The notes below the pieces were generated by a model. It made no database searches. It was not told where the DNA came from and worked only from the letters and a program-made list of their open reading frames with translations. The translations under genes and the position numbers were made by a program. A stretch of DNA of 64,000 bases from an uncultured bacterium (GTDB taxonomy: Bacteria > Desulfobacterota > Syntrophorhabdia > Syntrophorhabdales > JANXAF01): NCBI GenBank assembly GCA_938084905.1, contig CALKEQ010000002.1, forward strand, positions 139,515 to 203,514. The letters run 5' to 3'. Shown piece by piece: positions 6,927-32,953 of the stretch (within the stretch, counting starts at the first letter, position 1; the number at the start of each line of letters is the position of its first letter).

Positions 6927-8081
6927 CTATATGTACCTTTCAAGAATTAGAGAGAGAGTCCTCTCAACACTTCCAGGCTCTCTCTCTTCCATCTCCTTGA
7001 TTGTCTTTTTTAGCCTGTAATATGTGAGTTCGTCGTGGAGATCATAGAGGGTTCTGTAAATTCCCATCCTCCTTCCAAATCTGAAAACGAGCCTTTCCTC
7101 CTCTGTCAAAGAAAAGTACCTATCTATGACAGAGATCATCTTTTCCTTTTCCTCGGGAAGCTTCCCTTCAACTTCCTCTAAAAGGTTCAGTATGTGGTCG
7201 CTTTTCACATAACTCCCTATACCCTCAAGCCTCTGCAGGAGGTATTTTTCCTCCCTAAGAATATCCTCCTCAGTTTGGAGTAAAAATTCTCCGTTCCTTA
7301 TCTTCTCAAAGAGCGGCATCCCCTCCACGACCTTTAGTGTCCTGAACCTTATAAAGTCCGGATCTATCTGGTTTAAGACAGAAGCCGTTTCTTCCGCATG
7401 CTCCTGCCACCAATTTTTCCCTCCTAAACCTAGTATCACGTATTCTGAAAGTTCGATCCCAGACTCTTTTATTTTTCTGCCTGCCTCTATGTGCTCCTTA
7501 GGGGTAACTCCCTTTCTCATAAATCTCAGAATATGTTCACTCCCAGACTCAAGTCCCACATGGAGTCTTGTAAGACCAGCTTCTTTTAATTTCAAAAGAT
7601 CTTCGACCTTTAGTCTCCTGGCTATGGTCTGAGACCTGGCATACGATGTGATCCTTTCCACTGACGGGAACCTCTCTTTTAGGTAGCGAAGTAAGAAGGA
7701 GAGGTCCTCCACCTTCATGACAAGGGAATTTGCGTCTTGAATGAAGACGTTTTTTGCTCCAGTGTAAGCCCATATGGCAATTTGCCTGTAGCATTCGTTA
7801 AAACCTTCCTCAGATAAGATATCTTGAACAAGATCATCAGTTATCTGACCTCCAAATCCGCGTCTCCAGGATTCAAGAATTATATCGTCGTAGATCCTCT
7901 TCACATTATCTATGTCTTCTTTTATCTCAGAGACGGGCCTTATCTGAAACCTTTCCTTCTTGTAAAGATGGCAAAATTCGCATTTATTCCAAGGACAGTT
8001 CCTCGTAAACCTGAGAAGGAGGCTATACGCCTCACTAGGAGGGCGGATGGGTCCTATTTCGTATTTTAAATCCCTATTCAT
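6927..8081 (-). CDS. Radical SAM enzyme with non-canonical CX4CX2C cluster motif
   Basis: CPWNKCEFC gives C29, C34 and C37. Radical-SAM TIM-barrel-like core (RITSYARS, LHVGLESGS). No C-terminal Cys-rich auxiliary-cluster region. Confidence 0.8.
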   Translation of the reverse strand: MNRDLKYEIGPIRPPSEAYSLLLRFTRNCPWNKCEFCHLYKKERFQIRPVSEIKEDIDNVKRIYDDIILESWRRGFGGQITDDLVQDILSEEGFNECYRQIAIWAYTGAKNVFIQDANSLVMKVEDLSFLLRYLKERFPSVERITSYARSQTIARRLKVEDLLKLKEAGLTRLHVGLESGSEHILRFMRKGVTPKEHIEAGRKIKESGIELSEYVILGLGGKNWWQEHAEETASVLNQIDPDFIRFRTLKVVEGMPLFEKIRNGEFLLQTEEDILREEKYLLQRLEGIGSYVKSDHILNLLEEVEGKLPEEKEKMISVIDRYFSLTEEERLVFRFGRRMGIYRTLYDLHDELTYYRLKKTIKEMEEREPGSVERTLSLILERYI

Positions 8082-9321: not shown

Positions 9322-9605
9322 TCTTTCTTTGCTCCCATTATCATCTCCTTCAGTTCTTTTCCCACTTTGAAATAGGTCAATCTTTTCGGCTTAACTTGGA
9401 CCTTTTCCCCTGTTTTAGGATTCCTTCCTATATATGGGCCGTAATGTCTCGGGGAAAAACTGCCAAAGCCTCTTATTTCTATTCTTTCCCCGTTTATTAT
9501 AGCTTTTTTTAGTCTGTCGATTATGGTATCGACTGCGATTTTGGCTATTTTGAGACTGAGCCCCCTCCTTTTTGCAAGTTCTGCTATTAGCTCTGCCTTG
9601 TTCAT
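9318..9605 (-). CDS. HU/IHF-family DNA-binding protein
   Basis: MNKAELIAELA...RIEIRGFGSF...RNPKTGEKV is the typical HU/IHF fold signature. Its stop overlaps the HDAC-family gene stop within TTAA. Confidence 0.85.
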   Translation of the reverse strand: MNKAELIAELAKRRGLSLKIAKIAVDTIIDRLKKAIINGERIEIRGFGSFSPRHYGPYIGRNPKTGEKVQVKPKRLTYFKVGKELKEMIMGAKKD

Positions 9606-30715: not shown

Positions 30716-31141
30716 TTATATTGGTATGTCATCTTCTTCGTGGGGAAATTCTTCCTCTAGCTCCTCCTGGAGGATGCCAGTACTTCTCTGAATATCCCCC
30801 TCTTGAGGGGTAGGAGTTGGCAACATTCTCAAATCTGTAGCAACGATCTCGTACGCTCTTCTTTTTACTCCATCCTTTCCCTCATATTCCCTTGACTGGA
30901 TCCTTCCCTCTACGTAAACGAGTCTACCTTTCTTAAGATATTCTCCGCATATCTCCCCTAGCTTTCTCCAGGCTATGACTTTGTGCCATTCTGTTCTTTC
31001 AATCCTGTTCCCATTTTTGTCCCTTCTGACCTCCGTTGTGGCAATGTTAAAGGTGGCAACAGGGACACCGTCAGCTGTATGTCTCAGTTCAGGATCCGCA
31101 CCGAGCCTACCAACTAAAATCACCTTGTTTACACCCGCCAT
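30716..31141 (-). CDS. ssb: Single-stranded DNA-binding protein
   Basis: OB-fold N-terminus (MAGVNKVILVGRLGADPELR), acidic C-terminal tip EEDDIPI. Confidence 0.9.
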   Translation of the reverse strand: MAGVNKVILVGRLGADPELRHTADGVPVATFNIATTEVRRDKNGNRIERTEWHKVIAWRKLGEICGEYLKKGRLVYVEGRIQSREYEGKDGVKRRAYEIVATDLRMLPTPTPQEGDIQRSTGILQEELEEEFPHEEDDIPI

Positions 31142-31214
31142 CGCTCCTCCGAAAATTGGAAAGGTTTAAATTTAGGTTATAGTAAGCAGCCTAAAAAGTC
31201 AATGGAATGATCCC

Positions 31215-31331
31215 CGTTATACATTTATATGACAAGAGAAAACTTTTGGAACACAGATGATTGCTCAAAGATATCAAAGCGTTTTCTAGTAGGCAATTTT
31301 TCTATTGACATGAGAATTTTTTCGTTATACA
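31215..31331 (+). repeat. Two copies of CGTTATACA, 108 bp apart, flanking the RHH promoter region
   Basis: Exact 9-mers at 31215-31223 and 31323-31331. The second overlaps the putative -10 element of the RHH gene. Candidate operator half-sites. Confidence 0.3.
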
Positions 31332-31333
31332 CA
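31305..31333 (+). promoter_or_regulatory. Putative promoter of the RHH gene
   Basis: TTGACA (31305-31310), with TATACA/TACACA 15-17 nt downstream. The predicted start site falls at or next to the GTG at 31341, so the mRNA may be leaderless. Confidence 0.35.
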
Positions 31334-31340
31334 ACCTTCC

Positions 31341-31517
31341 GTGGCAAAGAAAAAGCCGGAAGACGAGAAAAGATCCAAACCAGTGATTGTGCGCCTAAAC
31401 AGGGAAGAGTTTGATATCCTTGAAAAAAGAGCCTCCTCCCTGGGAATGAACATTTCCTCATTTTTGAGACTCCTCATACGTCACGGAAGGATCGATCTGG
31501 AGGAGGTCGATAAATAG
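31341..31517 (+). CDS. Ribbon-helix-helix protein, MobC/CopG-like (58 aa, below ORF-track cutoff)
   Basis: Hand-translated as (V)AKKKPEDEKRSKPVIVRLNREEFDILEKRASSLGMNISSFLRLLIRHGRIDLEEVDK*. Beta-strand/helix/helix pattern typical of RHH (xVRLxxEExxxLxxxAxxxGxxxSxFLRxLI). The start codon is uncertain (GTG at 31341, 31383 or 31389). Confidence 0.6.
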   Translation: MAKKKPEDEKRSKPVIVRLNREEFDILEKRASSLGMNISSFLRLLIRHGRIDLEEVDK

Positions 31518-31535
31518 AGAAAGGGGGTGATGTTT

Positions 31536-31592
31536 ATGGCAGAAAAGAAGAAGGCGGCAGAAAAGAAGAAGGCGGCGAAAAAGAAGAAATAA
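31536..31592 (+). CDS. Possible 18-aa Lys/Ala micro-ORF (MAEKKKAAEKKKAAKKKK)
   Basis: SD AAGGGGG lies 8 nt upstream of the ATG at 31536. The ORF is in the same frame as the RHH gene, separated by TAG plus 6 codons. Coding status unproven. Confidence 0.2.
   Translation: MAEKKKAAEKKKAAKKKK
31539..31574 (+). repeat. Perfect 18-nt tandem duplication GCAGAAAAGAAGAAGGCG x2, plus a degenerate third copy
   Basis: 31539-31556 equals 31557-31574, followed by GCGAAAAAGAAGAAATAA. Confidence 0.85.
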
Positions 31593-31593
31593 G

Positions 31594-31616
31594 GAAAGGG
31601 GGGGTTACCCCCTTTC
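31594..31616. terminator. Bidirectional stem-loop terminator (der on the minus strand, RHH unit on the plus strand)
   Basis: GAAAGGGGG-GGTTA-CCCCCTTTC 9-bp stem. The 3' flanks are U-rich on both strands. It sits 3 nt from the der stop. Confidence 0.7.
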
Positions 31617-31618
31617 AT

Positions 31619-32953
31619 TTACTTCTTTTTGAGCTTTATCCTCAAAGGGGCTCCCAAAAAGGTGTATTTTCGCCTGAGGGAGTTTTCTATGTACCTTTTG
31701 TAACTTTCAGGCAAAAGATCGGGAAAGTTGGAAAAAAATACAAAGGATGGAGGGTATGTTCCAACTTGCGTTCCGTAATATATTCTGATCTTTTTCCCCT
31801 GAGGGGAAGGGGGCTCTCTCTCAGCGAGTATTTCCGCCAAAGCCCTGTTTAATGTGGCAGTCTCAATTCTCTTTTTTAGTTCGTTTTCCACTACCATATC
31901 CATTTCCAGAATTCTGTGGAGATTCTTTCCTGTCCTGGCTGAAACAAAGACAACAGGACAGAAGCTAGCATGCGGGATTCTATCTCTTAAGATTCTCTCG
32001 TAATCTTCCTCCCTTATTTTTCCTTCAACAAGGTCCCACTTGTTAACAACAAGAACAAGACCCTTTCCGTAATTTAGAACAACATGGGCAATCGATGCTT
32101 CCTGATGGCCGGCCCCCTCATGAGCGTCGATAATCAGATTCACGATATGTGACCTTTCAACAGTTTTTATCGCAGATGCTACAGATTTTATCTCCACATT
32201 TGTCGCCACCTTACTCTTTTTTCTTATCCCAGCTGTGTCGACAATTATAAGTCTTCGCTTCGCAAAGATAATCTCAGTATCTATTGGGTCTCTTGTAGTT
32301 CCCGGAATCTCGCTTACAATAACCCTTTCGTCCCCTATTATCCCATTTACGATTGAAGACTTGCCCACATTCGGCTTTCCAATGATGGCGATCCTTATGG
32401 CTTCAGCTGTCTCTTCGTCTTGAGGAAGAGTTATGGGTCTTATGGTTTCTGTTACAGCCTCAAGAAGCACGTCAATGTTTTTTCCATGTAGCGCACTTAT
32501 GGGATATAGCTTTTCCATACCAAGCGCGTAAAAATCGGATAGGTCTTTCTTTTGGCTGTCAACCTTGTTTATTACGCAGAAAATCGGCTTATTAAACTCC
32601 CTTATAAACCTTATTCCCTCTTCGTCCTCAGGAAGGAGGCCATCTTTAGCATCTAAGAGGTATATGATTGCAGATGACTCCTTTATTGTTCTCTCAATCT
32701 GCTTTCTTATCTGTGAGTTCATTTGTTCCTTCGAATGTACCTCTAGTCCTCCTGTATCGCAGATTAAGAACTTTACTCCATTATAGTCACATTCGGAGTA
32801 ATTTCTGTCCCTTGTCACCCCTGGGGTGTCCTCGACTATAGCTTTTTTCTTTCCACATATCCTGTTAAAAAGAGTCGACTTTCCCACATTTGGCCTTCCA
32901 ATTATCGTTACTACTGGCAGTTTCGATTCTTTTCTAAAGACAGAGCACTCCAT
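31619..32953 (-). CDS. der: Ribosome-associated GTPase Der/EngA
   Basis: Tandem GTPase domains (GRPNVGKST, GKPNVGKSS, DTGG/DTAG, NKVD/NKWD) plus a KH-like C-terminus. Confidence 0.95.
   Translation of the reverse strand: MECSVFRKESKLPVVTIIGRPNVGKSTLFNRICGKKKAIVEDTPGVTRDRNYSECDYNGVKFLICDTGGLEVHSKEQMNSQIRKQIERTIKESSAIIYLLDAKDGLLPEDEEGIRFIREFNKPIFCVINKVDSQKKDLSDFYALGMEKLYPISALHGKNIDVLLEAVTETIRPITLPQDEETAEAIRIAIIGKPNVGKSSIVNGIIGDERVIVSEIPGTTRDPIDTEIIFAKRRLIIVDTAGIRKKSKVATNVEIKSVASAIKTVERSHIVNLIIDAHEGAGHQEASIAHVVLNYGKGLVLVVNKWDLVEGKIREEDYERILRDRIPHASFCPVVFVSARTGKNLHRILEMDMVVENELKKRIETATLNRALAEILAEREPPSPQGKKIRIYYGTQVGTYPPSFVFFSNFPDLLPESYKRYIENSLRRKYTFLGAPLRIKLKKK

Follow-up and report, generated by a model that had tools for sequence, protein, structure and literature searches.

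A ribbon–helix–helix gene paired with a candidate polycationic micro-protein gene between ssb and der in an uncultured syntrophorhabdial bacterium

The DNA analysed here (the window) is a stretch of 64 000 nucleotides of contig CALKEQ010000002.1, from an uncultured bacterium of the order Syntrophorhabdales. Between its ssb and der genes lies a short module composed of a promoter, a gene for a ribbon–helix–helix (RHH) protein, a very short open reading frame (ORF) for a lysine-rich peptide, hereafter called the micro-ORF, and a G/C hairpin. On the basis of sequence comparisons, we regard this module, with moderate confidence, as an autoregulated RHH operon that makes a free polycationic micro-protein, the latter being a probable nucleic-acid or nucleoid binder. 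Eleven distinct intact modules were recovered, in three chromosomal contexts: between ssb and der, between nifS and an HU gene, and a third one in locus L029. Common to all intact modules are the hexamer TTGACA, an RHH gene devoid of a Shine–Dalgarno sequence (SD), a spacer of 16–22 nt that carries an SD, and an ORF of 18 or 22 codons. According to an initial annotation of the window, the interval from ssb to der contains a separate small transcription unit. The comparisons support this proposal. The unit of promoter, RHH gene, SD, micro-ORF and hairpin is kept across relatives; all of the elements listed in the annotation were found in the sequence, at coordinates off by one base at most.

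The micro-ORF carries its own translation signals. An SD of the form AAAGGGGGTGA or AAGGAGGTGA is present in 11 of the 11 intact modules, its last base 5–10 nt before the start codon, and the pentamer GGTGA is invariant in alignments of the spacer. Both forms are near-complete complements of the canonical 3′ tail of 16S ribosomal RNA. In the window, the heptamer AAGGGGG (31521–31527) lies 8 nt 5′ of the ATG at 31536, as had been annotated. The start codon is ATG in 10 of the 11 modules and GTG in L023, and the stop codon directly follows the terminal KKK in all of them. The length of the ORF is 18 codons in six lineages and 22 codons in the clade in which the module precedes an HU gene (the HU clade, L024–L028), and differs by whole codons only.

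The 18-codon peptides follow the pattern M-A-x-KKK-xxx-KKK-xxx-KKK. Their sequences are MAEKKKAAEKKKAAKKKK in the window, MATKKKATTKKKATGKKK in L001, MATKKKTTAKKKATAKKK in L016, MATKKKAATKKKASTKKK in L017, (V)ATKKKTTTKKKASKKKK in L023 and MATKKKAATKKKATGKKK in L029; the 22-residue peptide of the HU clade reads MPTKKKAPAKK[AT][AT]TKKAPAKKK. Lysine accounts for 9–10 of 18 or 10 of 22 residues, the remainder being A, T, S, P, G or E, and beyond the initiator Met there is no hydrophobic residue larger than Ala. The peptides are built of units xxxKKK or TKK(K)APAKK, and combine at least 45 per cent Lys/Arg with small residues, a repetitive structure and the absence of a hydrophobic core.

The micro-ORF varies mostly at third codon positions and thus behaves as a coding sequence. 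The variable columns at codon positions 1, 2 and 3 number 7, 3 and 15 in the 18-codon group and 2, 0 and 11 in the 22-codon group, and the KKK blocks are fixed while the Lys codons alternate between AAG and AAA. Differing codon pairs in the Lys frame are synonymous in 87 cases and non-synonymous in 60 in the 18-codon group, and 58 and 10 in the 22-codon group; for the other forward frames, the corresponding ratios are 21/122, 2/134, 8/58 and 0/66. The proportion of synonymous differences (pS) ranges from 0.14 to 0.97, and that of non-synonymous differences (pN) from 0.00 to 0.21. The Lys frame is very probably translated, judging from these patterns, and the coding strand is assigned to it because the SD, the start and the stop lie there. 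The comparative data favour the second of the three readings offered in the initial annotation, that of a polycationic peptide translated separately.

The first of those readings was that a basic tail is added to the RHH protein by amber read-through, or that such a fused tail was recently lost through a nonsense mutation. Its starting point is real: in the window, the TAG of the RHH gene is followed by AGA AAG GGG GTG ATG TTT ATG..., the frame stays open through RKGVMF, and it runs directly into the micro-ORF, which begins 18 nt after the RHH stop. Across the 11 modules, however, the frame offset between the RHH gene and the micro-ORF takes the values 0, 0, 1, 1, 1, 2, 2, 1, 1, 1 and 0, and the other two loci with offset 0 (L001 and L029) have an in-frame TGA in the spacer, which belongs to the GGTGA of the SD. 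Among 84 RHH relatives from a search of 1.84 billion representative proteins, none has a fused Lys-rich C-terminal tail, so that nowhere do the RHH domain and the tail form a single ORF. Because of the shifting offsets, the TGA in the spacer and the lack of fused tails, read-through is rejected as a mechanism, and a recent nonsense split with it. The RHH stop is kept in 12 of 12 loci, as TAG in the six loci of the ssb/der context and as TAA in the HU clade and L029, and is never replaced by a sense codon; the micro-ORF has its own strong SD everywhere. We consider a tail attached to the RHH protein, at present or until recently, very improbable, and the window has the two ORFs in frame by accident, through its 18-nt spacer. 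Taken together, the comparisons show the RHH protein and the micro-protein to be two separate predicted products, both under purifying selection.

The features of the locus are listed in table 1.

Table 1. Features of the module and its surroundings. Positions are those of the window, except in the last row.
Feature	Position	Strand	Description
ssb	30716–31141	minus	Pfam SSB, E 1.5e-36
Intergenic gap	31142–31618		477 bp, between ssb and der
Predicted divergent ssb promoter	31176–31203	minus	-35 TTGACT 31203–31198, 16-nt spacer, -10 TATAAC 31181–31176
Upstream CGTTATACA	31215–31223	plus	TATACA core 31218–31223; 15 nt beyond ssb -35; candidate RHH half-site
-35 hexamer TTGACA	31305–31310	plus	Predicted module promoter; T-rich tract just 5′
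Second CGTTATACA	31323–31331	plus	Holds -10-like TATACA 31326–31331; candidate autoregulatory site
RHH gene	31341–31517	plus	58 aa; GTG start at 31341; TAG stop 31515–31517; no SD
Extended SD GAAAGGGGGTGA	31519–31530	plus	Serves micro-ORF
Micro-ORF	31536–31592	plus	ATG, 18 codons and TAA; encodes MAEKKKAAEKKKAAKKKK
Tandem repeat	31538–31588	plus	Period 18, 2.8 copies (Tandem Repeats Finder)
G/C hairpin	31594–31616	both	9-bp stem; terminator-like; starts 1 nt after micro-ORF stop
der/engA	31619–32953	minus	Two MMR_HSR1 domains and KH_dom-like
Decayed module of L049	3001–3323		GCA_025062045.1, JANXAF010000002.1; otherwise syntenic relative

The 58-residue ORF of the RHH gene is present as annotated. 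Its product matches the Pfam family NikA-like (PF21983) with 35.7 bits (E 9.3e-9), above the gathering cut-off of 27, which is also passed by the orthologues P0004 (39.1 bits) and L029 (32 bits). Scores in Pfam are weaker for CopG and for further RHH families, and MobC (PF05713) gave no match to the 58-residue protein at E ≤ 1. The earlier assignment to a MobC/CopG type therefore holds as regards the RHH nature of the protein, but not as regards its family, which is NikA-like. In NCBIfam, the protein scores far under the cut-offs for MobA, MbpA and TraJ (20.4, 16.4 and 13.4 bits, for cut-offs of 80, 90 and 134) and also far under that of the RelB equivalog; PADLOC returned no match for the RHH proteins. 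There is weak profile similarity to the RHH antitoxins CopG_antitoxin, RelB and MazE6.

In this small protein, a basic N-terminal arm precedes a beta-strand and two helices. In an AlphaFold2 model (predicted local distance difference test score 74), the helices span residues 21–34 and 38–48; the strand is unassigned in this monomer model, as is to be expected of a fold that requires a dimer. The top Foldseek matches in the PDB are all RHH proteins (Arc, CopG, TacA, MazE6, ParG and NikA, 2ba3), and their E-values are weak (at least 0.4), as can be expected with about 40 residues aligned. The C-terminus is acidic in all orthologues (IDLEEVDK in the window). The predicted protein P0001 (68 aa) is an N-terminally over-extended call of the 58-residue protein.

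The ratio dN/dS of the RHH gene (Nei–Gojobori) is 0.01–0.08 in the window clade, with saturated dS, and 0.08–0.23 in the younger HU clade. Between the window and L001, amino acid identity is 90 per cent for the RHH protein, 86.5 per cent for SSB, 77 per cent for prolyl-tRNA synthetase (ProRS), 69 per cent for Der and 58.5 per cent for the NUDIX protein; the RHH protein is thus conserved as well as its housekeeping neighbours, or better. The initial annotation had made its view of the gene depend on purifying selection in the RHH frame, and the values obtained point to strong purifying selection. We classify the predicted product as a NikA-like RHH protein but not a mobilisation gene: the fold is known, but within it the protein forms a narrow subfamily that is new and chromosomal.

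Within ±10 kb of the RHH gene, the window contains housekeeping genes only, those for a xanthine-dehydrogenase-type enzyme, Fur, IlvD, IleRS, an M24 peptidase, ProRS, SSB, Der, the NUDIX protein, LonC, HrcA, GrpE, DnaJ and ArgRS. No relaxase, oriT or mobile-element gene was found in this interval. The gene order proS–ssb–RHH–der–NUDIX–lonC is shared by L001, L016, L017–L022, L023 and L049, and the ssb–der region, whose conservation the initial annotation had proposed as a check, retains the same neighbours in six related loci. The identity of Der is 61–69 per cent across the relatives that keep the locus; L001, a metagenome-assembled genome (MAG) labelled Deltaproteobacteria, has a Der about 68–69 per cent identical to that of the window. 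This agrees with the earlier remark that the RHH gene stands without a relaxase or toxin partner. In the second clade (L024–L028), the RHH gene lies between nifU/nifS-like genes and the HU gene, with dsr-like sulfite reductase genes nearby. As far as gene order can tell, the locus is chromosomal, vertically inherited and not mobile. A plasmid origin of the RHH gene was considered and rejected: the best plasmid match by tblastn is just 38 per cent identical, with an E-value of 0.01.

The RHH family is tiny. A search of 5.8 billion sequences yielded five clusters with 73–91 per cent identity, and an exhaustive profile search of the representative proteins gave 80 matches at E ≤ 1e-3, only five of them below 1e-10. 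The Lys-rich micro-ORF is absent 3′ of the next-closest RHH relatives, P0007 and P0008, and the pairing of RHH gene and micro-ORF therefore defines one narrow subfamily. A literature search returned no paper on this RHH subfamily or on a module of RHH gene and polylysine micro-ORF, and no mention of the MAG accessions of the module carriers. To our knowledge, a free-standing gene for a polylysine micro-protein tied to an RHH regulator has not been described.

The hexamer TTGACA, which follows a T-run and was initially described as a promoter-like element, is invariant in 10 of 10 distinct upstream regions (shuffle mean 0.91; 0 of 300 shuffles reached 10). The consensus promoter scan does not report a promoter with TTGACA because the best -10 hexamer, TATACA, stands at a spacer of 15 nt, outside the accepted 16–18 nt. 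The RHH start codon, which is not preceded by an SD, lies 30 nt after the -35 hexamer in the window and 29–31 nt after it in five intact loci of the ssb/der clade. A leaderless or near-leaderless RHH mRNA, with transcription starting within about 3 nt of the start codon, is plausible for this clade and agrees with the leaderless mRNA suggested in the initial annotation. The start codon stands farther from the end of TTGACA in the HU clade and L029, at 42–43 nt, also with no SD, which implies a predicted leader of about 13 nt.

The nonamer CGTTATACA occurs only twice in the window (0.19 expected; 1 of 100 shuffles reached two copies). The two copies are 108 bp apart and one of them covers the -10 element, exactly as the initial annotation had reported; the spacing of 108 bp between two TATACA sites recurs in L016. 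In the window, L001 and L016, TATACA covers the -10 position (-14 to -16 relative to the start codon). After TTGACA, TATACA/TGTATA is the most widely shared hexamer, present in 9 of 10 upstream regions (shuffle mean 2.8; 0 of 300 shuffles reached 9), a statistic that is inflated by the relatedness of the loci and is suggestive only. In alignments of the upstream site, the TATACA core is kept in L016, and L017 and L023 have a palindrome, TGTATACA. The HU clade has two palindromes, CTATT-N10-AATAG spanning the -10 box and TGTAT-N10-ATACA immediately next to the ATG, and L029 has one, CTATTA-N8-TAATAG. These are candidate sites of the kind that RHH repressors use, from which we infer that the RHH protein represses its own promoter.

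On the opposite strand, the element TTGACT–TATAAC is the probable promoter of ssb, which would share its control region with the module. In this region, AAGTCAA is invariant in 6 of 6 aligned orthologues; the window, L001 and L016 also have GTTATAGTA in common. The consensus scan missed this promoter because its -10 hexamer ends in C. Co-regulation of ssb by the RHH protein is a weaker suggestion than autoregulation because L049, although its module has decayed, still has the upstream TATACA site.

The G/C hairpin is the only robust element of the predicted RNA fold, and follows the micro-ORF stop by 0–3 nt in 10 of the 11 modules. It had been annotated as a terminator with a 9-bp stem, shared with der; it is indeed scored on both strands, and we take it to be a bidirectional terminator common to the module and der. 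In the HU clade, the hairpin is devoid of a plus-strand U-tract and no plus-strand terminator was scored; the HU gene follows about 150 nt downstream of the module, on the same strand. The fold of the whole transcript is not unusual (z = -1.1). No Rfam family reached its gathering score, and the hits obtained at E ≤ 5 were at chance level; a known RNA family or structured RNA was rejected on the grounds of the fold and of these Rfam results.

Several smaller observations concern the hairpin. In the window (31574–31630), the A-tract of the hairpin consists of the last Lys codons (AAAAAGAAGAAA), which on the minus strand provide the U-tract of the der terminator; the coding sequence and the terminator of the convergent gene therefore overlap. 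The sequence AAATAR-(A)G-GAAAGGGGG occurs after both stop codons, at 31512–31527 and 31587–31602, so that the 5′ arm of the terminator resembles a second SD; all orthologues have 5′ arms that are SD-like. Furthermore, the SD at 31519–31528 is perfectly complementary, over 10 nt, to the 3′ arm at 31607–31616. The shared sequence and the complementarity could reflect an origin by duplication or an alternative pairing. In the HU clade, a conserved element of about 36 nt, GARGCTGAYAAAGYKGCTGAATGYGCT, which is not found in the window, lies between the hairpin and the HU start (L024, 1600–1745; L027, 3290–3420). It varies mostly at every third base and would read EADK[VA]AECAH. A -1 frameshift or a long overlapping ORF through this element was rejected: the frame is -1 in four loci and +1 in L026, and there is no conserved start.

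The tandem repeat lies within the micro-ORF, and its first two copies (31538–31573) are identical. The perfect 18-nt duplication seen initially is thus present in the window, but it represents a lineage-specific homogenisation and not a general feature. L001 has its own, different perfect pair of 18 nt (ACAAAGAAAAAAGCGACA twice), and the units are imperfect in L016, L017, L023 and L029. Judged from these sequences, the ancestral feature is a set of three imperfect hexapeptide units. Their number does not vary, as had been thought possible, the 18-codon form always containing three. The two Glu residues of the window peptide, which are Thr in all other lineages, stand at equivalent positions of the identical copies, a placement that fits a conversion or slippage event.

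In one relative, L049, synteny is otherwise kept but the module has decayed. Its housekeeping proteins are as close to those of the window as are those of L001 (ProRS 78%, SSB 91%, Der 67%). The -35 hexamer is TTGTCA, TATACA at -10 has become TGTACG, and the start codon lies 29 nt from the -35 hexamer (hand count). The RHH protein is 68 per cent identical and has a three-residue deletion in helix B; the SD is devoid of GGTGA; the micro-ORF is frameshifted in a run of eight A, the shifted frame reading TTSKKK before a stop; and the interval from the module to der lacks a G/C hairpin. Given this joint decay, the parts of the module behave as one functional unit, lost as a whole and dispensable.

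We propose the following mechanism. Transcription from a sigma-70-type promoter with TTGACA would yield a short transcript, with essentially no leader. Its first, SD-less cistron would give the NikA-like RHH DNA-binding protein, and its second, 18 nt further on and preceded by a near-perfect SD, the polycationic peptide of 18 residues. The hairpin immediately after the stop would end the transcript, and would also terminate the convergent der transcript. The RHH protein would act as the repressor of its own operon through TATACA-type half-sites over the -10 and start region, and possibly also at the second site, beside the divergent ssb promoter. Weak translation of the RHH gene combined with strong translation of the peptide would provide a low level of regulator and a high level of cargo. 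The peptide may serve as a free counter-ion for DNA or another nucleic acid, in the manner of an H1 tail or a protamine. Such a role fits the divergent ssb gene in the window clade and the HU gene directly downstream in the other clade. A bolder version, which we put forward tentatively and consider rather doubtful, is that the peptide could be the smallest gene-encoded counter-ion of bacterial chromatin or nucleic acid proposed to date, abundant, held in check by the RHH protein of the same transcript and possibly coupled to ssb or HU.

A number of points weigh against the proposal. The peptide is of low complexity and matches no family: Pfam and NCBIfam gave no significant match, only insignificant, chance-level hits to Cir_N and Rv3852. 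Its function can therefore be argued only from composition and gene neighbourhood, and family-level homology cannot be claimed for a peptide of such low complexity. The third-position signal is also present in one antisense frame, and an A/G-rich stretch is free of stop codons through composition alone. The orthologues are phylogenetically related, and motif and codon statistics overstate their independence. As for autoregulation, L017 and L023 have TTTACT at -10 instead of TATACA; the window clade shows no obvious palindromic operator, only the direct copies 108 bp apart; and the upstream TATACA that survives in L049 may serve ssb and not the RHH protein. The frameshift of L049 could be an assembly error, the other changes in this locus being independent of it. 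Finally, all of the module sequences derive from uncultured organisms.

Other explanations of the micro-ORF were weighed along with that of a nucleic-acid binder. The peptide might act on RNA or the ribosome, or the act of translation alone might matter, by melting the terminator and thereby tuning read-through into HU or antisense to der, or the stability of the mRNA. The stop codon lies so close to the hairpin that a terminating ribosome would melt it; the SD of the micro-ORF is strong, and its complementarity to the 3′ arm of the terminator, the absence of a U-tract in the HU clade and the position of HU on the same strand all accord with a role of translation itself. The neighbours der, proS, ileS and argS are related to translation and would suit a factor acting on RNA or the ribosome. 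However, the peptide pattern is kept across clades (KKK blocks with small residues between them, pN well under pS), there is no same-strand gene downstream in the window clade, and the whole-transcript fold is unremarkable; that L049 can dispense with the module speaks against a role at the core of the ribosome. We consider these possibilities unlikely. A second alternative is that the Lys/Ala frame is untranslated and represents a purine-rich RNA element in the 3′ untranslated region, or the A-tract of the bidirectional terminator; the third reading of the initial annotation, non-coding purine-rich RNA, was of this kind. In the minimum-free-energy fold, the last Lys codons pair with the U-rich tail, and they are read as the U-tract of the der terminator on the minus strand; an A/G-only sequence cannot hold stop codons; and the micro-ORF is never called by gene callers. 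Yet the HU clade and L029, in which the hairpin does not serve a convergent gene, have the same ORF complete with SD, start and stop; SD and start are conserved in all 11 intact modules, substitutions show a 3-nt periodicity, and there is neither an Rfam match nor significant structure. With the start, the strong SD, the stop and the third-position variation all conserved, this explanation has become quite improbable.

A further possibility is that the real product lies on the minus strand, as a Phe-rich hydrophobic peptide of 45 residues that contains PYFFFFAAFFFSAAFFFSAI (window 31481–31618). The corresponding frame ('rev 1') is open in all orthologues and has its third positions in common with the Lys frame; with 67/69 and 56/10 synonymous/non-synonymous pairs, it looks equally synonymous. 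All antisense frames are open, however, because the sense strand has almost no T, and 'rev 1' shows the atypical pattern of more variation at position 2 than at position 1. It lacks a conserved start and SD, its possible starts being situated within the stem of the terminator. Since spacer lengths differ by non-multiples of three, the C-terminal part is not read in the same frame in all orthologues, and a Glu would interrupt the hydrophobic run in L017 and L023. The codon statistics are insufficient to exclude this ORF, which was rejected for want of a conserved start, SD and frame, and we hold its expression to be most improbable. The module might also be a toxin–antitoxin-like pair, in which the acidic C-terminal tail of the RHH protein (IDLEEVDK) would neutralise a toxic polycationic peptide. 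Type II toxin–antitoxin loci with RHH antitoxins (ParD, RelB, TacA, AtaR and MazE6) have the same gene order and spacing, the RHH gene first and a small gene after it, here 16–22 nt downstream. They likewise combine an N-terminal RHH domain with a short acidic C-terminal tail, such as all of the orthologues have, and palindromes in the promoter, such as those of the HU clade. The weak profile similarity to CopG_antitoxin, RelB and MazE6 is in line with this likeness, as is the loss of both genes together in L049. In contrast to such loci, the second gene has only 18–22 codons, no hydrophobic face or enzymatic character and no match to a known toxin family, and PADLOC recognises none of the RHH proteins. 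The distribution of translation signals is inverted: the strong SD belongs to the supposed toxin, and the supposed antitoxin is without one, the opposite of the usual antitoxin excess. Unlike mobile and patchy toxin–antitoxin loci, the module is a single-copy, vertically inherited and highly conserved locus with core-genome synteny at about 60–70 per cent Der identity and the low dN/dS given above. The gene organisation is not that of a typical toxin–antitoxin pair, and a function of this kind appears distinctly unlikely.

The proposed autoregulated operon can be compared with three other known systems. The relaxosome proteins NikA and MobC (PF21983; NikA of plasmid R64, PDB 2BA3) share the RHH domain of the window protein, and 2ba3 is among its fold matches. 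The window gene differs from them in having no adjoining relaxase, oriT or mobile genes and in its conserved core-genome synteny, and its product differs from mobilisation proteins in its low MobA, MbpA and TraJ scores and in the remoteness of its closest plasmid match. Autoregulatory RHH repressors such as CopG, Arc, Mnt and omega are likewise small RHH proteins encoded by the first gene of a short operon, and, like those of the CopG/Arc type, the window gene has candidate operator repeats over its own promoter; Arc and CopG are the best structural matches of its predicted model. In the window clade, the two 9-mers are direct copies separated by 108 bp, whereas the repeats of the CopG/Arc type are adjacent; the operator proposed here is a candidate only, and the cargo is a peptide of 18 residues, not a replication or lysogeny function.

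Lys/Ala/Pro-rich DNA-binding tails with repeats of the SPKK/AKKA type occur in eukaryotic H1, in mycobacterial HupB and Rv3852 and in the N-terminal extension of Deinococcus HU; the mu peptide of adenovirus is a further example of the kind. The motifs TKKKAPAKK (HU clade) and xxxKKK (window clade) match such H1- or protamine-like tails in composition and repeat style, and the sole profile hit that resembles a basic tail is the insignificant one to the repeat region of Rv3852. Unlike these tails, the product predicted here is free-standing, with 18–22 residues and its own SD and stop, and is not a domain of a folded protein.

If the proposal is true, a free polycationic nucleic-acid binder would represent a new minimal class of bacterial nucleoid-associated proteins, and the Lys/Ala-rich 'tails' of HU, H1 and similar proteins could exist as stand-alone gene products. 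Gene callers are blind to genes of 18 codons, and the comparative evidence for translation presented here comes from about 10 lineages. As the module also illustrates, an annotation as NikA/MobC-like is no proof of a mobile element, this subfamily of RHH proteins appearing to be a vertically inherited chromosomal regulator. Practical limits are the narrow distribution of the module and the lack of a cultured host.

In contigs of the HU clade, gene callers miss the real 22-codon ORF and place a wrong-frame ORF of 54 or 63 residues over the Lys region (L024, 1517–1681; L025, 315–479; and the contig of P0005). In this wrong-frame ORF, E and K swap freely, and the codon pairs are synonymous in no case and non-synonymous in 66.

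The motif M[AP]TKKKxxxKKK also occurs in viral contigs, as the N- or C-terminal tail of larger proteins. The presence of the module in these contigs was rejected, the motif being found there only as such tails and with no RHH gene nearby. The viral contigs L033–L047 encode a family of 66-residue proteins starting with MPTKKKTTTKKKSTVNKAGNY, with no RHH neighbour. L048, a viral contig of 182 kb, contains at 7082–7255 (minus strand) an ORF of 57 residues ending with MATKKKAATKKKVAKKAKKK, with an internal SD-like site before the Met and, again, no RHH gene nearby.

An HU/IHF-like ORF is present in the window at 9339–9605 (minus strand) and is 30 per cent identical to the HU protein of L024 (tblastn E 7e-13). 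It is located about 22 kb from the module and is therefore not linked to it in this genome. In the HU clade, a very AT-rich region of about 450–620 bp precedes the RHH gene (L024, 1128–1170; upstream regions of L026–L028), and that of L024 holds AATAATAGCTGACA twice.

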